NCBI GenBank assembly: GCA_003864555.1
Contig: BHER01000001.1
Location: 1 to 24,000, forward strand
Length of the DNA: 24,000 nucleotides
From: Erysipelotrichaceae bacterium
Lineage (GTDB): Bacteria; Bacillota_I; Bacilli_A; Culicoidibacterales; Culicoidibacteraceae
Direction: 5' to 3'
Shown piece by piece: positions 4,787-17,963 of the stretch. The stretch's first letter is position 1. Each line of letters opens with the position of its first letter. The notes under the pieces are model-generated. The model worked only from the letters and a program-made list of their open reading frames with translations, was not told the origin of the DNA and ran no database searches. Made by a program: the position numbers and the translations under genes.

Positions 4787-4936
4787 AAAAACTGTGGGTT
4801 CGCGATAGAAAACAAGGTATTATCTGCATCGTAAACTATGAAAAAAATTAAGCATGAGGAAGAAGAGTAGCATCCCACTTTTTATGCCATTTAATACGGG
4901 AGTATTTCCGAAATCAAATGTAAAAGGAGAAAAAAT

Positions 4937-5476
4937 ATGACAATAACAAGTGTAATGAAAGAAAGAAGAACAATAAGGACCTTTACTGGTAATATCCCCG
5001 ACAAAGATCTGTTAGCATTACTTGGGAGTGCAAGCTATGCGCCCAATCATAGGATGAGAGAACCATGGTCGTTCATCCTAGTCAATAGTATCGGTGATTG
5101 GGAGAAACTGTACACATTGACTACCAAAAGGCCTCCTTATTTAGCACAATTGGCGAAGCAATTGGAAAATGATGGTACATATCCAACGGGTATTATCGTT
5201 ATTTGCCCAGTAAATGCTGACCCAAAAGTAGCGAGAGAGGATTTGCTAGCAACAGCAGCCTTCATCCAAAATTTCCAGTTAGCTGCGTGGGCAGATAAGT
5301 ATGGTGTCGTTTGGCGAACAACTTGTATTGATGCCGATTTTGAACAAAGTATTGGAATTAAAGCCAATGAAATCGTCGTCGGATTTCTACAAGCAGGAAC
5401 ATTTGTGAACACGGCACAAAGTCTACCATACAGGTCAAATATTGAGGAAAAAATAAAGAGATTATCTGAAGTCTAG
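4937..5476 (+). CDS. Nitroreductase family protein
   Basis: 179 aa. N-terminal ERRTIRTFTG...LL..ASYAPNHRMREPWSFILV is typical of the NADH/FMN nitroreductase fold. RBS AAAGGAG. Confidence 0.8.
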   Translation: MTITSVMKERRTIRTFTGNIPDKDLLALLGSASYAPNHRMREPWSFILVNSIGDWEKLYTLTTKRPPYLAQLAKQLENDGTYPTGIIVICPVNADPKVAREDLLATAAFIQNFQLAAWADKYGVVWRTTCIDADFEQSIGIKANEIVVGFLQAGTFVNTAQSLPYRSNIEEKIKRLSEV

Positions 5477-5585
5477 AGTCTTTTTCGTGTGAAAGAAGAT
5501 TACTTGGTTTTAGATTGTTTAATTATTCTATTTACACTTTTAGCAGCAGAGTTTGACAAGATACTCATAACCATGTTCGCAATCT

Positions 5586-5613
5586 AAACACTACATTTTG
5601 TAGTGTTTTTTTT
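5586..5613 (+). terminator. Rho-independent terminator downstream of the nitroreductase gene
   Basis: AAACACTACA (5586-5595) pairs with TGTAGTGTTT (5599-5608) around a 3-nt loop, and the T run continues to 5613. Confidence 0.75.
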
Positions 5614-5828
5614 GATGAAATAAAATCCTACAAGGGTACAAAATACTTGGGCACATCAAATACTATAATAACTTTCGGCATCAATGGGCTCTATCACAAG
5701 TGGGTCCTGTAGAATGTAGCACTTCCAACACTTTTAGCTTTTTATTTAAGGGCGTACAGTTTAACTGCTATAGAAACTTTTCTATTATCTTAAAACTATT
5801 ATTACCCCTCTAAATAAAAAAAATGCCC

Positions 5829-5842
5829 TGAAAACGCTTGCA
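5829..5842. promoter_or_regulatory. Candidate cre box overlapping the -35 of the yhf-type operon promoter
   Basis: TGAAAACGCTTGCA against cre consensus TGWAANCGNTNWCA has one mismatch, at the W position. It overlaps TTGCAA at 5838-5843. Confidence 0.6.
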
Positions 5843-5866
5843 ATAAAAAAGAAAGTAAGCTACAAT
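5838..5866 (+). promoter_or_regulatory. Sigma-A-type promoter of the nine-gene operon
   Basis: TTGCAA (5838-5843), 17-nt spacer, TACAAT (5861-5866). It sits 54 nt upstream of the ATG at 5920. Confidence 0.6.
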
Positions 5867-5919
5867 AAAACCATCAATATACAAAATAATGAATATTGTA
5901 AAATGAGAGGAAGATTTTT

Positions 5920-6282
5920 ATGTTGAAAATAGTAGTAGGCGGACAAATTGATAAACCAGAAATTGCAGAATTAGTTAGAGTATGTGGGGGCGATGCAATT
6001 GAAGTAAGTGTCCAAAGTGACCTTGATGCAGCAATGTCGCTCCAAGCAGGAAGCGTAGATTACTATATTGGTGCCTGTAATACTGGTGGAGGTGGAGCAC
6101 TTGCAATGGCGATGGCACTTGTTGGTCATGATTTTTGTGCAACATTATCAATGCCCGGAAATATAAAATCAGAAGCAGAAATTCGTGGAGAAATCCAAGC
6201 TGGTAAAAAAGCTTTTGGGTTTACTGCACAAGATAAAGAGCAAATCATTCCAATCGTCATATCAGAGCTATTAAAAAAATAA
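5920..6282 (+). CDS. yhfU: DUF2620-family small soluble protein (YhfU-like)
   Basis: 120 aa. KIVVGGQ N-terminus and a Gly-rich Cys motif YYIGACNTGGGGALAMAMAL (Cys53). It sits directly upstream of a YhfT-like membrane protein and in the same operon as php. RBS GAGAGGAAG. Confidence 0.7.
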   Translation: MLKIVVGGQIDKPEIAELVRVCGGDAIEVSVQSDLDAAMSLQAGSVDYYIGACNTGGGGALAMAMALVGHDFCATLSMPGNIKSEAEIRGEIQAGKKAFGFTAQDKEQIIPIVISELLKK

Positions 6283-6307
6283 GAATACAAAGGAAGAGGA
6301 ATAAAAA

Positions 6308-7618
6308 ATGGAAACATCAAAAATAATTGAATTACTCGTCGTCGGCATGCTTGGAGCACTTGCAGCAGTTATTGCAAACAAGGGAATTGCTGTTTTTAAT
6401 GATGGACTGCGCCCAATTATTCCACAGTTTTTAGATAATAAAATTGGGAGAAAAGAATTAGCAGCAACAAGTTTTGCCCTTGGGTTCGGGCTTGTTATTG
6501 GATTTGGGATTCCAGTATCTGTCGGAGCATCTATCATTTTAGTGCATAGTATTCTCCTCGCAACCGATATTATTGGAACATGGTCACCAGGAGGGATGAA
6601 AGGTGTCATCATCTCAGCTATTATTGGTGGGATATATGGTATTGCAATTGTTCTCGGATTACAATATATTGTAGACCTTTTCGCAATGCTCCCAGTCAAC
6701 TTCCTCGATGCCCTTGCAAAAGTTGGTGCACCAGTTATTGTTGCCTTCTCAGTATTCCCATCGCTTGCAGTGGCATACCAACATGGGTTTAAAAAAGGTG
6801 CTATTACATTTGGAACATCGATATTTTTCATGTTTTTGGTAAAAGAATTTGGGGTTATTCAAATTTCTGATACGGCAACACTCAAATTAAGTGTTGAGGG
6901 AACAACACTTCTTGTGGGGATGGCATTTATGATTTTTTTCTCCCTTGGAGAAAAAGGATCAGGATCAGCAAATCAGCAACTGGTCAGTATTTTTGCAGAA
7001 CGGGTAAAACGGATTAAATCAAACTGGATAATTCTTGCAGTGATGGGAGGACTTGTTAGTGCGGCAACAAGTTTACTGATTTTAGCAGGAGATCCAATTT
7101 CGCAAAAATTAATGATTGAGGGTCTTTATAGTGAAGCAGCACTTGCAGCCTTCGCTCGTGGAATAGGCTTTATTCCGCTTGTCTTCTCAACAGCAATTGT
7201 AACGGGTGTGTATGGACCGGCAGGAACAACTTTTGTTTTTGTTATCGGGATTTTATTCCGTGGGAATCCATTACTAGCATTCGTCGCTGGATTTGCAGTT
7301 ATTGTTGTTGAAATTTTATTACTTGATAGTGCAGCCAAAGGACTTGATAAATTCCCTGGTGTCCGTGAAATGGGTGAACATATCCGAACAGCAATGAATA
7401 AAGTACTAGAAGTAGGACTTTTAATTGGTGGTGCGCTTGCATCAGAAGCAATTGCTCCGGGGATTGGTTATTTCTGGGTTATTGGGATTTACCTCTTAAA
7501 TAAAACAGCGAAAAAACCATTAGTTGATTTAGCCGTTGGACCAGTCGCAGCAATTTCACTAGGACTCTTGGTTAATATTTTAGCATTAGTTGGATTATTT
7601 ACAATTCCAACAGTATAG
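6308..7618 (+). CDS. yhfT: YhfT-like polytopic membrane protein, putative transporter
   Basis: 436 aa, hydrophobic and Gly/Ala-rich throughout, with about 11-12 TM segments by eye. Position and size parallel E. coli YhfT as I recall it. Confidence 0.7.
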   Translation: METSKIIELLVVGMLGALAAVIANKGIAVFNDGLRPIIPQFLDNKIGRKELAATSFALGFGLVIGFGIPVSVGASIILVHSILLATDIIGTWSPGGMKGVIISAIIGGIYGIAIVLGLQYIVDLFAMLPVNFLDALAKVGAPVIVAFSVFPSLAVAYQHGFKKGAITFGTSIFFMFLVKEFGVIQISDTATLKLSVEGTTLLVGMAFMIFFSLGEKGSGSANQQLVSIFAERVKRIKSNWIILAVMGGLVSAATSLLILAGDPISQKLMIEGLYSEAALAAFARGIGFIPLVFSTAIVTGVYGPAGTTFVFVIGILFRGNPLLAFVAGFAVIVVEILLLDSAAKGLDKFPGVREMGEHIRTAMNKVLEVGLLIGGALASEAIAPGIGYFWVIGIYLLNKTAKKPLVDLAVGPVAAISLGLLVNILALVGLFTIPTV

Positions 7619-7645
7619 TTCGAAAAAAGAAATGGGGATATATAT

Positions 7646-8668
7646 ATGCAACAGAATATCAAGCGTTATGCGAAAATGACAATTGCAGCCCTCAAAAATG
7701 AGCATAATACCTGTATACATGTCAATAGCGATTGTTTTGCACAAGTTTGTGAGTATACAAATACAGAGCACGAGGCTCTCTACTTCGGTGCAAAAAATAC
7801 AGCAGCTCTCAAACCATTGATTAGTAAGTTACAGGGTAATGCTTATTTCTACCATACAATTGATGCACTCGCAGATAATGGACGAGCAATTGATATTAAA
7901 TTACGAAACCCACTAACAGATAGAGCAATGAGTGGTTCATCAAGTGGTAGTGCAATTAATGTCTTTTATGGCATAAATGATATTGGAATTGGAAGCGATG
8001 GTGGTGGTTCTGTACTTGCGCCGGCAATGAGTTTAAATCTTTTTAGCCTGATTAGTCCATTATTACCAATCACACAACTTGATAAAATATCAACAGATGG
8101 GATTAAATTTGCACCCGTTGCGGGTATTATTGCTCATAATTTTAAACATTTTATTCAAACGGTGGAGTATCTTTTATTAGAAAAAAAGCCAAAGCCAAAA
8201 GCCAAAATTAGCATCTTGTGCCAAGAAAATTTTACCAAGCTTGATGGCGATAGTAACTTTCAAGTAACTAAAATGCCATTTCCAGATATAAATGGTCCAA
8301 GAGCGATACTTATTGCTTGGTGTACCCAAAAACTTAAGCTATACGATATAATAATAAGTGAAGAGGGACCGATTGATTGTTTGGAATATGGCGATACCTT
8401 ACAAGGAATTTTTTCAGAAAAAAATACCAAGGAACAACAAAAAGCGGGTAAAGGACTCCTGCGGATAGTTGCCATGTCGAAAGCAACAGCCATAACAATA
8501 CCAAAACTTGCAAAAGCTGAGGGGTATGTCCTCATTGCCAACTCAACACCTAGGGATATCTACAATCTCCTAGAAGTTGGGAAAATAGTAGAGCAACCAT
8601 TTCCGGAAATAATCAAAAAATATTTCCACCAGAGCTATAATAAACGTGAAAATAACATCATATTTTAA
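7646..8668 (+). CDS. Short, divergent amidase-signature-like protein (no counterpart in the E. coli yhf set)
   Basis: 340 aa. Residues 96-127, SGSSSGSAINVFYGINDIGIGSDGGGSVLAPA, follow the amidase-signature pattern G-[GAV]-S-[GS]2-G...[DE]-x-[GA]-x-S-[LIVM]-R-x-P with exact spacing. Ser98 and Ser122 are 24 residues apart, and there are about 4 mismatches including R to L. A KPKPKAK linker at about residue 180 splits the protein into two halves. Confidence 0.6.
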   Translation: MQQNIKRYAKMTIAALKNEHNTCIHVNSDCFAQVCEYTNTEHEALYFGAKNTAALKPLISKLQGNAYFYHTIDALADNGRAIDIKLRNPLTDRAMSGSSSGSAINVFYGINDIGIGSDGGGSVLAPAMSLNLFSLISPLLPITQLDKISTDGIKFAPVAGIIAHNFKHFIQTVEYLLLEKKPKPKAKISILCQENFTKLDGDSNFQVTKMPFPDINGPRAILIAWCTQKLKLYDIIISEEGPIDCLEYGDTLQGIFSEKNTKEQQKAGKGLLRIVAMSKATAITIPKLAKAEGYVLIANSTPRDIYNLLEVGKIVEQPFPEIIKKYFHQSYNKRENNIIF

Positions 8669-8701
8669 GATGATAAACAGAAGAAAAGGTGTGTGTGGGA
8701 A

Positions 8702-9589
8702 ATGAAATTAGTTGCAGGTATAACACTTATGCATGAGCATACAAGAATTGATCTTTCAGGATTAAAAAAGAATGATGATTGTAATCTAAATTGCTTTGAA
8801 CAGACAATTAAAGAATACAAAGAACTCTACCAACAGGGTGTTCGGAATATTGTGGATGTGACAAATATTGGCATGGGTGGTGATGCAGCATATGTCCAAA
8901 AAGTTGCGAAAGCATCCAATATCAATATTATCCATGCCACAGGCTTCTATCAGGATAAGTTTTTGCCACCGATTGTTTTTTCCAAGACTGTCGAGCAGCT
9001 AGCACAAATTATGATTGACCAGATTGAAATTGGGATTGATGGTACGAGTGCAAAAGCAGATATCATTGGTGAAATTGGCACAAGTAAAAATGAGATGACT
9101 GCAGCAGAGCAGAAAGTTTTCAAAGCAGCCATGCTTGCATCACGCAAAACGGGTAAGCCACTAACAACCCATACAACACTTGGTACGTATGGGAAAGAGC
9201 AAGTTGCTTTTTTCAAAGAACATGATTTTCCTTTAAATATGGTGATGATTGGGCATGTTGATTTAACGGGCGATACAGAGTATGTCCTCGACTTGCTAAA
9301 AGAGGGGGTATATGTTGAACTCGATACAGTGGGGAAACATAATTATATGGCGGATGCAGTCCGTTTGGAGATGCTCAAAGAAATTGAAGAGCAGGGGTTT
9401 GAAAACCGGGTTTGCCTATCGCTCGATATTACACGGAAATCACAATTAAAGTATCTAGGAGGTATCGGCTATACATATATGCTTGATACTTTTATCCCGT
9501 ATTTACGCGCGAGTGGTCTAAGTGAGCGTTTTATTGAGAAGATGCTCATCGAAAATCCACAGCGGTTTTTTGAAGAAAAAAGCCAATAA
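8702..9589 (+). CDS. php: Phosphotriesterase-homology protein (Php; amidohydrolase superfamily, binuclear metal centre)
   Basis: Candidate metal ligands are HEH (His11/His13), GEIG (Glu124), TTHT (His157), IGHVD (His185) and LSLDIT (Asp242), counted from ATG 8702. ATG 8702 is preferred over the GTG at 8693 used by the ORF track. Confidence 0.9.
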   Translation: MKLVAGITLMHEHTRIDLSGLKKNDDCNLNCFEQTIKEYKELYQQGVRNIVDVTNIGMGGDAAYVQKVAKASNINIIHATGFYQDKFLPPIVFSKTVEQLAQIMIDQIEIGIDGTSAKADIIGEIGTSKNEMTAAEQKVFKAAMLASRKTGKPLTTHTTLGTYGKEQVAFFKEHDFPLNMVMIGHVDLTGDTEYVLDLLKEGVYVELDTVGKHNYMADAVRLEMLKEIEEQGFENRVCLSLDITRKSQLKYLGGIGYTYMLDTFIPYLRASGLSERFIEKMLIENPQRFFEEKSQ

Positions 9590-9607
9590 AAGAAAAGGGG
9601 AAAGAGG

Positions 9608-10711
9608 ATGCAAACATATCCATTAACAAGTATTTCAGTAGAAGAGGCAACACAAAAACAATTTGCTTTAATTGATGCAATTACCCGTGTTTTTAAAGGG
9701 AGCGAAATTCTTACACGTGGTGATTTAGGTGTTGTTAGGGGGCTTAATCAACCACAAACAACGGCAAAAGTTGAGCGTGTATTAGCAACTTTTTTCAATG
9801 CACCAAAAGCGATGCTTGTGCGTGGTGCAGGGACAATGGCAATTAGACTTGCGCTATATAGTAGTATAAATTTGGGTGAAACAATTTTAATCCATGATGC
9901 AGCAGTTTATCCAACAACAGATACATCTTTCCAAATGATGGGCTTAAAAACGGTACGAGCAGATTTTAATATTTCGGGTGCAATAACCCGTGCATTAAAG
10001 CAAAATCCCGAAATCAGAGGAGTACTCATCCAGTTCACCCGCCAGCAGCCTAGTGATTGCTATGATATGGAAAACATCATTGCTGAAATCCGGGCCTATA
10101 CGCAGGATTTGCCAATTATTACAGATGATAATTACGCTGTTTTGAAAGTACCCAAAATTGGTTGCGAACTGGGAGCAACACTCTCGTGCTTCTCAACATT
10201 TAAGCTCCTTGGACCAGAAGGTATCGGCTGTATTATTGGGAATCGGGAGGCCATTGAAAAACTGCGGAGCCAAAATTATTCTGGAGGACTACAAGTTCAA
10301 GGACATGAAGCAATTGATGTCCTGCGTGGCATGATTTATGCGCCAGTAGCCTTAGCAATTTCTGCAAATGTTACAGAGCAAACTGCCCAAAAATTAAATG
10401 AGGGTGCAATTGCGGGTGTAAAATCATGCTTTATTGCAAATGCACAATCAAAAGTACTCATTGTCGAACTAGAAAAGCAAATTGCAGATGCAGTCTTAGT
10501 TGAGGCCGAAAAATTAGGTGCAGCACCCCATCCAGTTGGTGCAGAATCACAGTATGAATTTGTACCAATGTTCTATCGTATTTCTGGGACATTTAGAAGC
10601 AGTGATCCAACACTTGAAAAACGGATGATTCGGATTAATCCGATGCGCGCAGGGAGTACCACAATTCTGCGAATTCTTGAAGAGGCAATTCAGAATGTAA
10701 CGCAGGGATAA
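9608..10711 (+). CDS. yhfS: YhfS-like fold-type-I PLP-dependent enzyme
   Basis: 367 aa. ITDDNYA (Asp173) and SCFSTFKLLG (Lys199) resemble the PLP Asp and Schiff-base Lys motifs of aminotransferase/Cys-Met-metabolism-type enzymes. RBS GGGGAAAGAGG. Confidence 0.7.
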   Translation: MQTYPLTSISVEEATQKQFALIDAITRVFKGSEILTRGDLGVVRGLNQPQTTAKVERVLATFFNAPKAMLVRGAGTMAIRLALYSSINLGETILIHDAAVYPTTDTSFQMMGLKTVRADFNISGAITRALKQNPEIRGVLIQFTRQQPSDCYDMENIIAEIRAYTQDLPIITDDNYAVLKVPKIGCELGATLSCFSTFKLLGPEGIGCIIGNREAIEKLRSQNYSGGLQVQGHEAIDVLRGMIYAPVALAISANVTEQTAQKLNEGAIAGVKSCFIANAQSKVLIVELEKQIADAVLVEAEKLGAAPHPVGAESQYEFVPMFYRISGTFRSSDPTLEKRMIRINPMRAGSTTILRILEEAIQNVTQG

Positions 10712-10738
10712 TATACCAAAAGAAGGAGATGAACACCG

Positions 10739-11662
10739 GTGAAATCAGATTTTTTTCAGAAAAAAGGCACAGCAATTAAGCAATTAGCTGAAGTTTTAAT
10801 TGTAATGCAACCGGGAGAAAAACTACCAATTGTCAGTGTGCTTCAGGAAAATCTAGGAATATCACGGGGAACAGTACAGAATGCTTTGCAATTTCTCAAA
10901 GACCAAGATGCAATTGTGCTTGTAAGCAGGGGCCATCTTGGGAATTATCTTACAAGTATCAACCACCGTATTTTACAACAGTATGCAGGAACGGATGAAC
11001 TTTTTGGGACAATGCCATTGCCATACTCGCGGATCTATGAGGGGTTAGCAACTGCACTATATGACACCCTAAATGCTCAAGGAGTACGGCTTAATATGGC
11101 ATATATTCGGGGTTCAAATGACCGCTTGCAGTCAGTTGTGCGAGGGATGTATCAGTTTGCAATTGTTTCAAAATATGCTGCAAGACGTAGTATTGAAATG
11201 GGAGAAAGCCTTAAAATCATTGCCGATTTAGGAAAGTATAGCTATCTATCACAACATATCCTATTACTAAAGAATCCAAATGCGACAACAATTGTTGCAG
11301 GAGACCGTGTTGGAATTGATATGAGTTCAATTGATCAAAAGGAGCTTACGCATATATTAACTGCTAACACAAAAGTAAGTTATATCAATTTACCAGGGCA
11401 CCAATTAATCCATGAAATTGAGCTTGGGAGAATTGATGCCGGTGTTTGGAATTATGATGAAATTATCGAAAAGAACTATGAACATCTAAATTACCAACTC
11501 ATATCAGATATGGCAATTTCAGAAGAAGTATCCACAGCAGTCATAGTCTGCAACCAATCAGATATCCTGGTACAAACAGTCTTAGAAAAAAATATTGATA
11601 CAATTAAAATCTTACAAATTCAACAAGATGTTAAAAAAGGGAAAATTATACCTCGCTATTAA
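10739..11662 (+). CDS. yhfZ: YhfZ-like transcriptional regulator (GntR-like winged HTH plus C-terminal ligand-binding-type domain)
   Basis: 307 aa from a GTG start, with RBS GAAGGAG 10 nt upstream. HTH segment SVLQENLGISRGTVQNALQFLKDQDAIVLVSRGHLGNYL. The next gene is a PRD protein, as in the E. coli yhfZ-yhfY pair. Confidence 0.7.
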   Translation: MKSDFFQKKGTAIKQLAEVLIVMQPGEKLPIVSVLQENLGISRGTVQNALQFLKDQDAIVLVSRGHLGNYLTSINHRILQQYAGTDELFGTMPLPYSRIYEGLATALYDTLNAQGVRLNMAYIRGSNDRLQSVVRGMYQFAIVSKYAARRSIEMGESLKIIADLGKYSYLSQHILLLKNPNATTIVAGDRVGIDMSSIDQKELTHILTANTKVSYINLPGHQLIHEIELGRIDAGVWNYDEIIEKNYEHLNYQLISDMAISEEVSTAVIVCNQSDILVQTVLEKNIDTIKILQIQQDVKKGKIIPRY

Positions 11663-11684
11663 TAAAAAAAAGGAGAAATTTGAG

Positions 11685-12032
11685 ATGATCTACAAAAAAA
11701 TGGAGATTTTAAAAAATGGAAATATTATTGATGAAGCAGCATATGACTATGCGTTTAAAGTCATCAAACGCTTAGGGGAAGAGGGGATAGATGTGCAATC
11801 GGATAGAGCACAAGTATTTGTAACACATCTTGCAATGGCAACGATGCGGATGCAAAAAGGCGAAGTACTTGAACCACTATCAGAAGCAATTGAGGCTGAT
11901 TTAAAGGGGCAATCAATATTCGCGCAAGCAGAAATACTCTGGACACAGCTTGCATATTTTGCACCAAAACCATTTGCCCAAGCCGAAGAAGGATATATCT
12001 ACATCCATATGTGTTCATTATTGAGCAACTAG
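11685..12032 (+). CDS. yhfY: Stand-alone PRD-domain protein (YhfY-like)
   Basis: 115 aa from ATG 11685, with RBS AGGAG 9 nt upstream. All-helical, with the His-containing segment VFVTHLAMATMR typical of PRD modules. The ORF-track start at 11595 would overlap yhfZ by 68 nt and lacks an RBS. Confidence 0.65.
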   Translation: MIYKKMEILKNGNIIDEAAYDYAFKVIKRLGEEGIDVQSDRAQVFVTHLAMATMRMQKGEVLEPLSEAIEADLKGQSIFAQAEILWTQLAYFAPKPFAQAEEGYIYIHMCSLLSN

Positions 12033-12047
12033 AGAGGAGCACGCATC

Positions 12048-13217
12048 ATGTTTTTAACGATGACGACAAACCGCAATCAGGAACTTATCGATTTTGCAGT
12101 AGAACTGCATCAAAAAGGACAAATTTTGCCCGACACCTATGTCATTGACGTGGATACTTTGTGTGAAAATGCCCGGATGCTTGCATGCTCTGCTAAAGAA
12201 TATGGCATTGAGCTCTATTATATGACAAAGCAAATTGGTCGCAATCCTTATCTTGCAAAAAAAATTCATGAAGCAGGCATCAAAAAAGCAGTAGTTGTCG
12301 ACTTCAAAGAAGCACTGCTTTTAATGGATGCAGGACTACCACTTGGAAATGTTGGGCATCTTGTACAAATTCCCAACCAATTATTAAAAAAGATTTTAGC
12401 TTATGGTACCGATTACGTCACTATTTACTCAATAGAGATGCTTAAAAAAGTTGATGCAGTTGCAGGCGAACTCGGTATTATTCAGCCTGTGCTATTGCGG
12501 ATTTTAGATGAGGGAGATCGGATTTATGAGGGGCAATATGGTGGGTTTATGCTGGATGATTTACCAGCGCTTATGCAAGAATTTAAAAAATTACTAAGCA
12601 TCAGAATTACCGGTCTGACATCTTTTCCCTGCTTTTTATATCAAGCGGAACAAGGAGAGTTTATGTCAACACCCAATGCTCAAACACTATATAGAGCACA
12701 AATACTTCTGAATAAAGCAGGCTTTGCAATCACGCAACTCAATATGCCCTCGGCAACATGTGTCCGCTCACTCAAATTTTTAGCAGAAATTGGAGGAACA
12801 CAAGGAGAACCAGGGCATGCACTAACTGGAACAACACCGATGCATGCCAAAGAAGTATTAGCAGAAAAACCAGCACTTGTCTATGTGAGTGAAATTTCTC
12901 ATAGGTTTAAAGGGAAAAGCTATTGCTATGGAGGGGGTTACTATCGCCGTGGGAATTTATCAAATGCCCTCATAGCGACAAAGGGGATGCCATATACGGA
13001 AACAAAAGTTTCTCCTTTTGATAATGAGAGTATTGATTATTACCTTGAATTAGCAGGCATGCAACCACAAGATGCAACGGTTATTATGGCATTTCGAACA
13101 CAAATTTTTGTAACCCGTAGTGAGGTTGCATTGGTTGAGGGATTATCGACAAATACGCCTAAACTTGTAGGAATTTACGATAGCTTAGGTAAAAAAAATA
13201 AGGGGGATTTAAAATAA
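12048..13217 (+). CDS. yhfX: YhfX-like fold-type-III (alanine-racemase-N-terminal-like) PLP enzyme
   Basis: 389 aa. The N-terminal barrel-type region has candidate PLP lysine YYMTKQIGRNP. RBS GAGAGGAG. Position and size parallel E. coli YhfX as I recall it. Confidence 0.65.
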   Translation: MFLTMTTNRNQELIDFAVELHQKGQILPDTYVIDVDTLCENARMLACSAKEYGIELYYMTKQIGRNPYLAKKIHEAGIKKAVVVDFKEALLLMDAGLPLGNVGHLVQIPNQLLKKILAYGTDYVTIYSIEMLKKVDAVAGELGIIQPVLLRILDEGDRIYEGQYGGFMLDDLPALMQEFKKLLSIRITGLTSFPCFLYQAEQGEFMSTPNAQTLYRAQILLNKAGFAITQLNMPSATCVRSLKFLAEIGGTQGEPGHALTGTTPMHAKEVLAEKPALVYVSEISHRFKGKSYCYGGGYYRRGNLSNALIATKGMPYTETKVSPFDNESIDYYLELAGMQPQDATVIMAFRTQIFVTRSEVALVEGLSTNTPKLVGIYDSLGKKNKGDLK

Positions 13218-14422
13218 TGGCAAGATTTATAGTAGTCGTTTTAGATAGTTTTGGTGTGGGTGCAATGGATGATTGCAAAGCTGTACGCAAACAAGATATT
13301 GGGTCGAATACCGCCTTACATATTCTCGAAAAGACGCCAAATTTGTATCTGCCTAATCTTGAAAGTTTGGGTCTTATGAATATTCTTGATGCAGAAATAG
13401 ATGGGATGATATTAAATCCAATGTCAAATTATGGGACTGCTAATTTAGCACATTTTGGGGCAGATAGCTTTGCAGGCCATCAGGAAATCATGGGAACGAA
13501 GCCCTCAAGACCTTTAGAACTTGCAATAAATGATGTTGCAGCAGAGGTGAAATTAGCATTAGAACTTGCGGGGCATCGGGTAGATTTTATTGAAAAAGAT
13601 GGATTAAAAGCAATCCTCGTCGATGGGACTGTTTTAGTTGCTGATAATATGGAAACAGATTTAGGGCAAGTGATTAATGTAAATGGAATATTAGATGAAA
13701 TATGTTTTGCAGATGTTGAGAAAATTGGTCGGATTGTCCGTGGCGTGGTCAAAGTATCACGTGTAATTGTTCTTGGAGGTAGGAGTGTTAGTCTTAATAG
13801 GATGCTTGCAGCCCTAAAGACTAACTCAGAATTTATTGGATTGGATACACCAAAATCAGGGTTATATTTAGATGATTACCAGGTAATTCATCTTGGATAT
13901 GGCGTAGATACGACCATGCAAGTTCCTCATGCCCTTGCACAAAAGAAAATCCCAACAGTATTTGTTGGGAAAGTTGGCGATATTGTTGCCAATCCGGGAG
14001 GATGCAATATTTCAGGTGTGGATACGCAAGATCTTTTTGATGCTTTTATTACGGAAATTAAAAAAGAAAAAACGGCTTTCTTCTGTCTTAATATTCAAGA
14101 AATGGATTTAGCAGGTCATGCACAAAATGTAAAAAAATATGCAAAGAAATTAAAAATATCTGATGATAAAATTGGTGAAATCTTGGAAATTTTAGGAGTC
14201 GATGATGTGCTTATTGTGATGGCTGATCATGGCAATGACCCAACAGTTGGTCATAGCAGGCATACACGCGAGCGGGTCCCATTACTAGTTGCTAAGCAGG
14301 GTCTAACCTACGTACGACTTGATGAGCGTGAGACGATGGCAGATGTTGGTGCTACAGTTGCTGCTTTTTTTGGGACAAGCATAGCATATGGGACATCCTT
14401 TTTACGAATGATTCAAAACTAA
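13217..14422 (+). CDS. yhfW: YhfW-like phosphopentomutase-family metalloenzyme (putative phosphomutase)
   Basis: 401 aa. VVVLDSFGVGAMDD, GADSFAGHQEIMG, DLAGHAQN and ADHGNDPT align with DeoB motifs VLDSFGIG, GKDTxSGHWEIAG and ADHGCDPT. The start overlaps the yhfX stop (TAATG). Confidence 0.8.
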   Translation: MARFIVVVLDSFGVGAMDDCKAVRKQDIGSNTALHILEKTPNLYLPNLESLGLMNILDAEIDGMILNPMSNYGTANLAHFGADSFAGHQEIMGTKPSRPLELAINDVAAEVKLALELAGHRVDFIEKDGLKAILVDGTVLVADNMETDLGQVINVNGILDEICFADVEKIGRIVRGVVKVSRVIVLGGRSVSLNRMLAALKTNSEFIGLDTPKSGLYLDDYQVIHLGYGVDTTMQVPHALAQKKIPTVFVGKVGDIVANPGGCNISGVDTQDLFDAFITEIKKEKTAFFCLNIQEMDLAGHAQNVKKYAKKLKISDDKIGEILEILGVDDVLIVMADHGNDPTVGHSRHTRERVPLLVAKQGLTYVRLDERETMADVGATVAAFFGTSIAYGTSFLRMIQN

Positions 14423-14428
14423 AAAAGA

Positions 14429-14465
14429 TCGTCCTCAGGTGGAAATTTGAGGACGACCTTTTTTT
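14429..14465. terminator. Strong rho-independent terminator between convergent genes, potentially bidirectional
   Basis: TCGTCCTCA (14429-14437) pairs with TGAGGACGA (14448-14456), a 9-bp perfect stem with a 10-nt loop, followed by a T7 run (14459-14465). An A6 run upstream (14421-14426) could serve the minus strand. Confidence 0.85.
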
Positions 14466-14527
14466 AATCTGTTTTATCGAGGAGCTCATCGTGTTGAGGG
14501 CTTGGGAATAGATGTGGTAGTATGATA

Positions 14528-16138
14528 TTATCCTCTAAAAACAAGATGCCAGAAATTTATTTTTTTGGACATTAACCAAATAATGGCTAAATTGATAACA
14601 CCAAGGAGCACAAGATAAATTAGTGCTAGAAGGCGACCTTCAAAAACTGCGGGTACAAACTGCATAATAAGGGAATTACAAGCAAGTGTTAGGAAAAACC
14701 CAGGGATGCTACAAATAATGGTTTTGCCAATAGCATTATAAATGAAATAAGGTTTTAAATCAACTAACTTCAAAATATCACGTGTTGATAGATAAACAAT
14801 CATTAATAATCCAAGCATCGTTGCAAAAATATCGCCATACACCCCGAAAAAATAGACAAGGGGGAAGTTTAGGATAAGTTTTACAACGGGGCCAATAGCG
14901 CTGTAGATGAGCGCTTTTTTCTTTTCTCCAAAAGCAAGGAGGACTGATACTGAAATAGTTTCAAGTGCAAATGCCATACCACGGAAGCCATCTACCCGTA
15001 AAACCGCAGCAATAAACTGTGTCGTAACATTATCCAAATTATAAAAAAAAGTAATCAGAGGGACAGATAAGGTTACCATAATAAGGACTGCTGAGAGTGT
15101 TGTGAAAAAAATCATGCGATAGGATTTCTTGACATATTTTCGCGTTTGTCTCATATCTTGGCTCTCGTATGCACTCGTGACAAAGCTGATAATTGCAACC
15201 GAAATTGCTAATGAAAAAGTCAAAGGAATCGAAACGAGTTTATCACTCCACTGGTTGATAACGGTATACTCTGATTTTGCTAGTAACTCAGTTGCACCAG
15301 CAAAAATCCGAATTTTTTCAAAAGTAAATAAAGTAATCTGGGAATAGAGTGTTGCTGCAAGACCAGAGATTACAAAAGGGAGAGCAGTAAGAATTAATTG
15401 GCGGCTGATAAATTTCTTATCGGAACCTATTTGATCCAAAGAAGTTTCCATCAGTATTTTATGCTCCCGTCGGGTTTTAGCATAGAAAGGATATAATGTG
15501 AAAATTGTAATGATAGTTGCAATAGGGAGAGCAATAAAGGCATAAGCAATCGCTTTTCCACTTTCTATTTTAAAGAAGTTTAGCGTAATATAGAGCGTGG
15601 ATAAAAGGATGATAACATAGGCAAGGCGCTCAACGACTTGTGAAATAGAAACACCAATTACGGTTTTAAAACCTTGGAGATAACCACGCATCCCACTCAA
15701 AATTGGGATAAGGACAAGTGCTGGTGCCATAATATAGAGTGCAAGGGTAGTTGCTTGTGCAAGCTCTGGATTATCGGGTGCTTTAAACTGTCCAAATGGT
15801 TGAGCAAAAAGAACAAATAAAACCATCAAAACAAGACCAAGGACAAGCATTAAGCGTTGTGCAATTTTTAAAACCTCATTAGCAGTCTTATACTGACCAT
15901 TCACATTGTAAATTGAAATCAGGCGTGCAATAGCAAGGGGGAGGCCTGCAAGGGATAGTTCATAGAATGGTTGAAACATCGTATAGGCATAGCTATTGAC
16001 ATAATTGGCATTGGTATTAAAAACCATTGCTGCAAAAGGGATGAGGTAGGCAACACTTATAATACGTGTTAAAAAAAGTCCAATTGTTGAAATGAGGGCA
16101 ACACTAACAAAGGACTGATTTTTATTTATTTTGTTCAT
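14528..16138 (-). CDS. MOP-superfamily flippase (polysaccharide biosynthesis protein; MurJ/YtgP/SpoVB-like)
   Basis: 536 aa with about 14 TM segments by eye. The overall architecture is typical of Wzx/MurJ-type flippases. RBS GAGGAG. Confidence 0.7.
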   Translation of the reverse strand: MNKINKNQSFVSVALISTIGLFLTRIISVAYLIPFAAMVFNTNANYVNSYAYTMFQPFYELSLAGLPLAIARLISIYNVNGQYKTANEVLKIAQRLMLVLGLVLMVLFVLFAQPFGQFKAPDNPELAQATTLALYIMAPALVLIPILSGMRGYLQGFKTVIGVSISQVVERLAYVIILLSTLYITLNFFKIESGKAIAYAFIALPIATIITIFTLYPFYAKTRREHKILMETSLDQIGSDKKFISRQLILTALPFVISGLAATLYSQITLFTFEKIRIFAGATELLAKSEYTVINQWSDKLVSIPLTFSLAISVAIISFVTSAYESQDMRQTRKYVKKSYRMIFFTTLSAVLIMVTLSVPLITFFYNLDNVTTQFIAAVLRVDGFRGMAFALETISVSVLLAFGEKKKALIYSAIGPVVKLILNFPLVYFFGVYGDIFATMLGLLMIVYLSTRDILKLVDLKPYFIYNAIGKTIICSIPGFFLTLACNSLIMQFVPAVFEGRLLALIYLVLLGVINLAIIWLMSKKINFWHLVFRG

Positions 16139-17162: not shown

Positions 17163-17224
17163 TTTATATGAGTATGATACACTAACAAAGGTTTAAAAAA
17201 ATGAAGTATATAAGGAGAATAAAT

Positions 17225-17770
17225 ATGAATAGATTTGTAGGAAGATTTCTAATATCCGTGCTTGTCTTAATTGGTTTCGTCGCATTCAGCTTTTTTAGTT
17301 CAGCAGATTCAGCAAGCGTAAAAGTAGTACACACTATCCAAAAACAAGAACCTATATTAGCAGGTCGACCAAGTGGTGATTTACTACTTAGTTCGATGGT
17401 TAATTTCTATGCTGGTGCAGCAGAGGCTAGTGATGAGGAACTCGGAATGGATGCAAATCAAGGGACAGCATTCAGAACATTAGCAAACTATATTGCTTTA
17501 AATGTTCCAAATGTCGAAGAGTCATCAGCCAAGAAAGTTAGTGGAGCCTATATTGGTAACAGCTCGGATAGCTCAGTTACAGGGGTTTATGTGCTCACAT
17601 TTCCTCGTGATATACAGATTGGACAAGATATCAGCGACATAGCCAATACAGCAGAACTAGAATATTTCATCGTAAAAGATAAAATTATGGTTATTGCGGA
17701 TGCTGATTATCTAGCTGATCTAGATATTGATTTTTCTGATTTTGAAGCAAAAGTACTAGCTAAAATATAA
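17225..17770 (+). CDS. Small secreted or membrane-anchored protein of unknown function
   Basis: ATG 17225 follows AAGGAG by 7 nt, whereas the ORF-track start at 17201 lacks an RBS. Signal-peptide-like N-terminus MNRFVGRFLISVLVLIGFVAFSFFSSADSA. Acidic C-terminal half. Confidence 0.6.
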   Translation: MNRFVGRFLISVLVLIGFVAFSFFSSADSASVKVVHTIQKQEPILAGRPSGDLLLSSMVNFYAGAAEASDEELGMDANQGTAFRTLANYIALNVPNVEESSAKKVSGAYIGNSSDSSVTGVYVLTFPRDIQIGQDISDIANTAELEYFIVKDKIMVIADADYLADLDIDFSDFEAKVLAKI

Positions 17771-17789
17771 TAGTCAATCTTAATTGAGT

Positions 17790-17826
17790 GCCCAACCAAG
17801 CAATCTGCCTGGCTGGGCCTTTTTTG
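17790..17826 (+). terminator. Rho-independent terminator
   Basis: GCCCAACCAAGC (17790-17801) pairs with GCCTGGCTGGGC (17807-17818) at 10 of 12 positions around a 5-nt loop, followed by a T run to 17825. Confidence 0.75.
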
Positions 17827-17963
17827 TGGAGAAAAAAGTGAAAAGTGTAAAAAGACAAAGCGGATTAAAAAAAATGATTTGAATCCTTAAAATCGCTTTT
17901 AAAATCAGGACATACATGCTAAAATATAATGTGATAATTTAAAAAAGATAAGGAGAAAATAAA

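Follow-up and report, generated by a model that had tools for sequence, protein, structure and literature searches.

After sixty years of work on the phosphoenolpyruvate (PEP)-dependent phosphotransferase system (PTS), its permease families are, to our knowledge, regarded as catalogued. Canonical EIIA-EIIB-EIIC permeases with a cysteine-bearing EIIB (Lac/Chb, Mtl, Gat, Asc) pass phosphate from His to His to Cys to sugar, using a small alpha/beta Cys carrier with a polytopic partner, and they depend on EI and HPr and have a link to PRD domains. In the Rossmann-type EIIBs of these permeases, the Cys that accepts the phosphate lies close to the N-terminus, in the loop that follows strand 1. A precedent for a soluble system is DhaKLM, which phosphorylates its substrate in an EI/HPr-driven manner and needs no EIIC; its proteins belong to unrelated families, and it uses an ADP cofactor on DhaL instead of a Cys. 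Here we describe a yhf operon in the first 24,000 nucleotides of contig BHER01000001.1 from an Erysipelotrichaceae bacterium (GenBank assembly GCA_003864555.1; this whole stretch is referred to as the window). We propose that its YhfU protein may be the Cys phospho-carrier of an unconventional PEP phosphotransferase branch, running from EI over HPr, YhfY(His) and YhfU(Cys53) to a substrate via YhfT, and we put the probability of this proposal at roughly 45%. If it holds, the chemistry would be that of a canonical Cys-EIIB system; the differences are that none of the 3 components is homologous, that the Cys lies elsewhere in the fold and that a PRD domain has the presumed EIIA role.

The closest described gene cluster is yhfZ-yhfY-yhfX-yhfW-php-yhfU-yhfT-yhfS of E. 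coli K-12, which has the same families as 8 of the 9 window genes and was recovered by our DUF2620 control search, with NCBIfam names of the YhfZ, PRK12383 and PRK09875 types. The window version differs in having yhfU-yhfT first, yhfZ-yhfY in the middle of the operon and an additional amidase-signature-like gene. A literature search found no published function for either version; the B. subtilis genes called yhfU and yhfT are unrelated. The window (37% G+C) carries the 9 genes on one strand (5920-14422, +), as an operon between 2 terminator-like hairpins. Four features are central to the argument:

5920..6282, + strand: yhfU, encoding a DUF2620 protein of 120 aa with a predicted RpiB/LacAB-superfamily fold, candidate Cys phospho-carrier (PF10941, 146.9 bits over residues 3-116, cut-off 25)
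6070..6099, + strand: the Cys loop of YhfU, G51-A52-C53-N54-T55-G56-G57-G58-G59-A60
6308..7618, + strand: yhfT, encoding a polytopic membrane protein of 436 aa, probable permease of the module (PF10797, 533.9 bits, cut-off 26.1)
11685..12032, + strand: yhfY, encoding a stand-alone PRD protein (115 aa when read from the ATG at 11685) that may carry phosphate on His from HPr to YhfU (PF00874, 24.7 bits, cut-off 23)

YhfU starts with MLKIVVGGQ and has its Cys53 codon at 6076-6078. The yhfU stop at 6282 and the yhfT start at 6308 leave a gap of 25 nt that contains a AGGAAGAGG-type ribosome site. The original prediction for this locus, made from the sequence alone, had described a 120-aa YhfU with the start KIVVGGQ and Cys53 in a Gly-rich loop, the 25-nt gap and the 436-aa YhfT, and all of this was confirmed on the open reading frames (ORFs). 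It had also described an operon with a PRD protein and a phosphomutase that lacks a kinase and any canonical PTS part. Pfam and NCBIfam profiles bear this out, giving no match to kinase, PTS EII, HPr or EI families among the 9 operon products.

The strongest result of the analysis is the linkage of yhf operons to EI and HPr. In Petrotoga sp. UBA5851 (L051), yhfW and HPr overlap at the yhfW stop, and EI comes next. The same yhfW-HPr-EI order is present in a second Thermotogota metagenome-assembled genome (MAG; L052), with one gene between yhfW and HPr, and the contig of a third (G001) opens with a 3' fragment of yhfW followed by HPr and EI. HPr comes after yhfW in a Fusobacteriaceae locus as well, and the HPr proteins of yhf operons retain the His15 motif. 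The PTS is rare in Thermotogota: of 151 species genomes, 5 encode a DUF2620 protein, and all 5 of them have EI; among the 146 genomes without DUF2620, an EI-type N-domain was found in 8, with only 3 strong matches (nominal Fisher p = 2e-6, for related genomes and not adjusted for relatedness). Two of the genomes, G001 and G002, each encode a single EI and a single HPr and gave no match to EIIA_1, EIIA_2, PTS_IIA, EIIA-man, gutA, PTS_IIB or PTS_EIIC; a third, G392, gave no match to EIIA_1, EIIA_2, gutA or EIIC. Brachyspira and Entomospira, which served as controls, gave many matches in all PTS families except gutA and, for Entomospira, EIIA-man. No PRD domain other than YhfY was found in G001, G002 or G392.

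Linkage to EI and HPr is also seen in a high-GC clade, known from metagenome contigs of 67-70% G+C, in which YhfU is fused to a PRD. The fusions fall into six 90%-identity clusters that are 55-100% identical, with the Cys loop and the two His motifs retained in all. The gene order, in the 3 contexts read, is [YhfU-PRD]-YhfW-YhfX-HPr-EI with mostly overlapping stops and starts, and a related high-GC contig has unfused YhfU and PRD followed by YhfW, YhfX, HPr and EI. HPr and EI are thus located within the yhf operon in 2 unrelated lineages, Thermotogota and the high-GC clade. More generally, the EI N-domain is present in 54 of 55 genomes with a yhf locus, and the window's own genome encodes both EI and HPr. 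The exception is a 1.1-Mb Erysipelotrichaceae MAG, which has an EI-like ORF of 627 aa on the opposite strand, 0.8 kb downstream of its yhf operon (L069:17199-19082, -); the N-terminal region of this ORF has no match to PF05524. A dependence of YhfU and YhfT on EI and HPr, as the original prediction implied, is indirectly supported by these genomic data.

The Cys53 loop is the signature of the YhfU family. The closest relative, from a Culicoidibacterales MAG, is 83% identical, and Cys53 is invariant in 35 relatives with 57-83% identity. A set of 1.8 billion proteins, clustered at 50% identity, yielded 66 diverse full-length representatives, of which 63 have Cys53, 64 have T/S55, 65 have G56 and 63 have G8; the 3 representatives without Cys53 appear degenerate or frameshifted. 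Conservation of Cys53 within DUF2620, on which the original prediction depended, is therefore clear. Near-invariance is limited to C53 among the YhfU cysteines, given that C73 is found in 39 of the 66 and C22 varies even in close relatives. Several apparent fusions, i.e., PHP-YhfU (P0156), YhfU-YhfT (P0191) and P0253, were set aside as likely read-through or frameshifted gene calls, as was the 300-residue N-terminus of P0263, likely an over-extended ORF in high-GC DNA. The proposed partner YhfY matches the PRD profile and has both conserved His residues: H48, R55 and E101 are invariant in 79 orthologues, and H108 is present in 92%.

The AlphaFold2 model of YhfU (predicted local distance difference test score 96.6; predicted template modelling (TM) score 0.90) is a five-stranded flavodoxin-like alpha/beta domain with parallel strands as in RpiB. 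In this model, strand 3 ends with Cys53, the helix after it is capped by T55 and the Gly run, and the other conserved positions (G7-G8, T75-G80 and G100-T102) are likewise on loops at the C-terminal ends of strands. Foldseek against the PDB places RpiB structures at most of the top ranks (6fxs, 3k7o, 5ifz, 1o1x, 2vvr, 1nn4; query TM scores 0.61-0.70, probability 1.00); the nearest matches are all RpiB, with TM scores of 0.65-0.70. The remaining matches in the top 50 are mostly CheY-type receivers, flavodoxins and B12-binding domains with TM scores of about 0.5, and no PTS EIIB is among these 50. At the sequence level, phmmer and hmmsearch against PDB sequences gave only marginal RpiB-like matches (3c5y and 2ppw, E 0.4-0.7) in which the Cys loop is aligned with C-G-T-G, and the RpiB profile PF02502 stays below its gathering score (best E 0.17, in 1 of 35 YhfU members). 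The homology of DUF2620 to RpiB is visible in sequence only via a third family, Gly_rich_SFCGS (SFCGS), whose Pfam model cross-matches 32 of the 35 YhfU members. With hhalign, DUF2620 and SFCGS align over 99 columns (E 9e-5) and SFCGS and RpiB align with 94.8% probability (E 5.5e-8), both with the Cys loops in register. Weak matches of the SFCGS model in Mollicute genomes are the RpiB genes of those genomes. Together, the predicted fold and the chain of profiles indicate that YhfU is a member of the RpiB/LacAB superfamily.

The original prediction had suggested a non-canonical EIIB/EIIC-like pair and had called for a comparison of the YhfU fold with EIIB families. It is supported in part: the pair has genomic ties to the PTS, with HPr and EI in yhf operons; homology of YhfU to EIIB and of YhfT to EIIC is not borne out. 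The nearest fold is RpiB, and the YhfU loop after strand 1, where a Rossmann-type EIIB has its Cys, is G7-G8-Q9 without Cys, with the conserved Cys53 following strand 3. Canonical EIIB membership was rejected for lack of a profile or fold match and for the position of the Cys. For YhfU, "EIIB-like" fails as a statement of homology and survives as an analogy alone.

For YhfT, the AlphaFold2 model built from 32 orthologues (predicted local distance difference test score 87.6, predicted TM score 0.84) gave no meaningful fold match in the PDB, with TM scores of at most 0.25, all E values above 0.02 and no EIIC listed. The 32 orthologues have no match at E values up to 10 to EIIC Pfam families (PF02378, PF03611, PF03609 and related) or to another transporter family, and assignment of YhfT to a known EIIC or another solved transporter fold was rejected on these grounds. 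Judging from the model, YhfT is a membrane protein whose fold is not yet solved, for which "EIIC-like" is possible solely as a functional analogy.

To place the window operon in a wider context, we collected 80 loci from one-genome-per-species collections of Bacillota, Fusobacteriota, Thermotogota and Spirochaetota. The 2 genes yhfU and yhfT co-occur in all 80, and yhfU is immediately 5' of yhfT in 79, with a median gap of 18 nt. The commonest order is yhfZ-yhfY-yhfU-yhfT-(amidase-like)-php-yhfS-yhfX-yhfW, the usual place of the PRD gene yhfY being directly upstream of yhfU. No canonical PTS EII component is among the recurrent neighbours outside the yhf operon. A Bacillota MAG (L034:1709-10363) has 2 yhfT paralogues, the second of which is followed by an unknown ORF of 183 aa and then yhfU. 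In a Miniphocaeibacter MAG (L028), yhfU and yhfT share a divergent unit (9893-12664, +) with the amidase-like gene, opposite yhfZ-php-yhfS-yhfX-yhfW.

The homologous SFCGS protein belongs to a second module that resembles the yhf operon. Canonical SFCGS clusters (L110, L111) match the TIGRFAM EF_0829-EF_0839 set and encode a small PRD protein, SFCGS, DUF4312, DUF4311 and DUF4310, which make up the module (EF_0829-0833), 5' of a DgaE-family ammonia lyase and a DagF-type 2-keto-3-deoxy-6-phosphogluconate (KDPG) aldolase. The lyase scores 464 bits to the D-glucosaminate-6-phosphate lyase model, which is under the equivalog cut-off, and the aldolase scores above its cut-off. Enzymes of these types require a 6-phosphorylated substrate, and no kinase is encoded in the SFCGS operon; the 6-phosphorylation step of the Salmonella dga pathway is carried out by a mannose-type PTS permease. 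The 2 modules share a homologous Cys protein, the arrangement of small PRD protein, Cys protein, membrane protein(s), amidohydrolase and pyridoxal phosphate (PLP)-dependent enzyme, and the lack of a kinase; they differ in the downstream enzymes, in the extra DUF4312 and in the membrane parts, for which no homology to YhfT could be detected (hhalign probability below 1%, from thin alignments). Homology of YhfT to DUF4311 or DUF4310 was provisionally rejected at hhalign probabilities of 0.2-0.3%, with alignments of only 3 sequences, in which the best non-significant pairings are the N-terminal half of YhfT with DUF4310 and the C-terminal half with DUF4311. Both systems thus combine enzymes for phosphorylated substrates with a small PRD protein, a Cys protein of the RpiB fold and membrane proteins. 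The window's own genome also has an SFCGS cluster, on another contig (L108, contig C3:7500-27000; 2839-10155, minus strand), in the order small ORF, SFCGS, DUF4311, DUF4310, Lac-family EIIC, amidohydrolase, DgaE-family lyase, KDGP aldolase and GntR. It is unusual in having a Lac/Chb-family PTS EIIC of 446 aa inserted after DUF4310 and no DUF4312 gene, and the 88-aa ORF upstream of SFCGS, at the place held elsewhere by PRD proteins, has no Pfam match.

Drawing on the observed families, fold, conservation, linkage, fusions and EI/HPr co-occurrence, we infer every phosphotransfer step of the following route, including YhfY as donor. Phosphate would pass from PEP to EI and on to HPr(His15), from HPr to His48 and/or His108 of the stand-alone PRD protein YhfY, from YhfY to Cys53 of YhfU, and finally to a hydroxyl of the substrate. 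The substrate would enter through YhfT and then feed the phospho-sugar enzymes, i.e., the phosphomutase-like YhfW and the lactonase-like PHP. YhfW and PHP belong to families acting on phosphorylated sugars, yet the operon has no kinase, a combination that we count in favour of the phospho-carrier proposal. The relay steps would be chemically equal to those from HPr to EIIA(His), EIIB(Cys) and sugar. YhfU would reuse the RpiB/LacAB scaffold, with its Cys at the end of strand 3 in a Gly-rich helix-cap anion hole that is the sugar phosphate site in RpiB; a Cys in a backbone-amide anion hole on a scaffold that binds sugar phosphates would suit a thiophosphate intermediate. Transfer from EIIB(Cys~P) to PRD(His) is established for BglF/BglG, and the reaction from YhfY(His) to YhfU(Cys) is plausible since this known transfer runs in the reverse direction. 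The original prediction had YhfU signalling to YhfY. This direction is one option; a reading with YhfY upstream as the donor agrees with the data no less well. Two modes of action are conceivable for YhfU: group translocation while docked on YhfT, in the manner of EIIB on EIIC, or, once the substrate has been taken up, phosphorylation as a soluble PTS-driven kinase comparable to the Dha system. The docked mode is favoured by the adjacency of yhfU and yhfT in 79 of 80 loci, and the soluble mode by the high-GC arrangement, in which yhfU is apart from yhfT. A broader claim, which we advance more tentatively, is that the yhf and SFCGS modules are a complete, undescribed class of PTS permease assembled from non-homologous parts, with the PRD as EIIA-like, the RpiB-fold protein as EIIB-like, and YhfT, which would have a new membrane fold (or DUF4310 plus DUF4311 in the SFCGS module), as EIIC-like component.

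A number of observations weigh against the phospho-carrier proposal. The relatives of YhfU are enzymes, and it keeps the catalytic Cys and Thr of RpiB (C53-N-T55-G56 aligns with C-G-T-G), which makes an enzymatic role a live alternative. YhfU would then be a cytoplasmic RpiB/LacAB-type enzyme (an aldose-ketose isomerase, epimerase or other Cys-base catalyst) acting on a phosphorylated intermediate, and YhfT an ordinary secondary carrier or channel. The PTS input would be regulatory only, going from EI and HPr to YhfY and on to YhfZ or an enzyme. Regulatory-only PTS branches such as PTS-Ntr exist, and by analogy the EI and HPr inside the operon could serve regulation only. Besides the top Foldseek ranks and the SFCGS-RpiB profile match, this explanation has in its favour that in the high-GC clade yhfU accompanies the YhfW and YhfX enzymes, with yhfT located 3-3.5 kb away in a separate transcription unit, which itself counts against the proposal. 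The shared features with RpiB/LacAB (PF02502; PDB 2vvr, 1nn4, 1o1x, 6fxs) are the five-stranded parallel alpha/beta fold, the Cys at the end of strand 3, the x-Thr-Gly that follows and the Gly-rich helix cap. In the LacAB structure, an Asp-His pair after strand 1 is essential (D8A and H9A inactivate), ring opening is attributed to a His and phosphate binding to C-terminal Arg residues, and Cys and Thr have catalytic roles (PMC3755991). The Asp-His position is G7-G8(-Q9) in YhfU, with Q9 missing in 42 of 66 relatives, and by chained hhalign alignments the ring-opening His of RpiB (the H-N position) falls on a non-conserved A/G. YhfU ends about 30 residues earlier than RpiB, before the Arg-bearing C-terminal helix, and so has no C-terminal Arg/His phosphate clamp. 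As judged by these alignments, YhfU is not a plausible standard isomerase, the catalytic residues other than Cys and Thr being lost. An enzymatic role also leaves unexplained the source of the substrate phosphate, the adjacency of yhfU and yhfT, and the presence of EI and HPr in this operon where no other PTS part was found, and we consider it rather unlikely.

A second alternative retains the partnership with YhfT and dispenses with the phosphate: YhfU would be a non-catalytic soluble subunit of YhfT, such as a gate on the cytoplasmic side, a cap that binds substrate or product, or a regulatory partner, with a Cys loop that binds ligand. It accords with the close linkage of yhfU and yhfT, with the divergent unit of the Miniphocaeibacter MAG, which keeps yhfU, yhfT and the amidase-like gene away from the enzymes, and with the position of the homologous SFCGS protein, also next to membrane proteins. 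However, a near-invariant Cys in an anion-hole loop across 2 families that are ~24% identical argues for chemistry rather than binding, and the PRD fusion and the HPr/EI operon linkage without an adjacent yhfT are hard to explain for a subunit, so that we regard this role as improbable. In the same Miniphocaeibacter MAG, PHP (410 aa; 7721-8953, -) carries an N-terminal PRD fusion, with a GlcT-PRD2-like region at residues 43-110. The fusion may be genuine or result from misassembly; taken as it stands, in this one MAG, it means that PRD fusion is not specific to YhfU. Further points on the negative side are that one yhfT of the Bacillota locus L034 directly follows yhfY with no yhfU between, that the 3 PTS-poor Thermotogota genomes are MAGs or drafts whose completeness is not established, 2 of them near-identical at YhfU, and that our literature search, covering yhfU, yhfT, DUF2620, SFCGS and DUF4311, found no publication on their function; for YhfU, YhfT and DUF2620 this too counts against the proposal. 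The same applies to the lack of any match of the 35 YhfU members, at E values up to 10, to PTS_IIB (PF02302) or the Glc-type PTS_EIIB (PF00367), and to the hhalign probability of 1.9% for YhfU against Chb-type EIIB, with an EIIB alignment of 2 sequences only. These last results also bear on the idea that YhfU is a diverged true EIIB of the Lac/Chb/Mtl/Gat/Asc type and YhfT a diverged EIIC. A small alpha/beta protein with a conserved Cys and a polytopic membrane neighbour would suit this idea, but it is contradicted by the tests run on profile, fold and Cys position and by a YhfT with neither EIIC fold nor Pfam match, and we give it almost no credence.

The other features of the window operon are as follows:

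5586-5608: terminator-like hairpin of the upstream gene
5838..5866, + strand: promoter-like sequence for the 9 operon genes (TTGCAA, 17 nt, TACAAT; from a consensus scan only)
7646..8668, + strand: short amidase-signature-like protein of 340 aa, optional operon member (PF01425, over residues 87-128 only)
8693..9589, + strand: PHP (YhfV), phosphotriesterase-related amidohydrolase (PF02126, 278.6 bits)
9608..10711, + strand: YhfS, PLP-dependent enzyme (PF22475, PF00266)
10739..11662, + strand: YhfZ, GntR-type helix-turn-helix regulator with a binding-protein-like C-domain (NCBIfam YhfZ_full, 361.6 bits, cut-off 260)
12048..13217, + strand: YhfX, PLP enzyme of the alanine racemase fold (PF21279, PF01168)
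13217..14422, + strand: YhfW, phosphopentomutase-like metalloenzyme (NCBIfam PRK12383, 520 bits, cut-off 254)
14429..14456, + strand: terminator-like hairpin at the operon end (12-bp stem, then a T run)

An Rfam scan of 4800-15000 found no RNA families. PHP scores 329.5 bits to the NCBIfam phosphotriesterase-related model, under the equivalog cut-off of 486, and has a weaker NCBIfam match to phospho-furanose lactonase. The 340-aa amidase-like protein aligns with the 445-position amidase model in the region of the Gly/Ser-rich signature only and may be a truncated or remodelled amidase-signature protein; its gene is present in 60 of the 80 loci, at varying positions. Other accessory genes vary by lineage across yhf loci and may give a clue to the substrate. 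In the Thermotogota MAG L052, yhfW and HPr are separated by a gene (17194-17916) of the glucosamine-6-P isomerase/6-phosphogluconolactonase family. The extra genes of the high-GC clade (L119:15216-15863 and neighbours) encode a KDPG-type aldolase (PF01081), a GPI-like cupin, a 2-hydroxyacid dehydrogenase, a class-III aminotransferase and a SIS-domain protein, and in L119 an ABC sugar transporter is immediately upstream of yhfT.

The hypothesis is directly testable with the E. coli proteins. If the mechanism holds, it would provide a new set of PTS components and, if the broader claim is also true, a further class of PTS permease, new to the field, with unrelated carrier and membrane proteins. 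A PRD domain would be able to serve as a relay component, beyond its role as a sensor, and an isomerase scaffold would have been recruited as a phospho-cysteine carrier. The long-orphan eight-gene operon of E. coli K-12 and the widespread EF_0829-type clusters would obtain a function, and isolated EI/HPr pairs in genomes seemingly without a PTS transporter would be explained. In some Thermotogota and high-GC bacteria, where the module would be the sole PTS found, it would be the reason for keeping EI and HPr.

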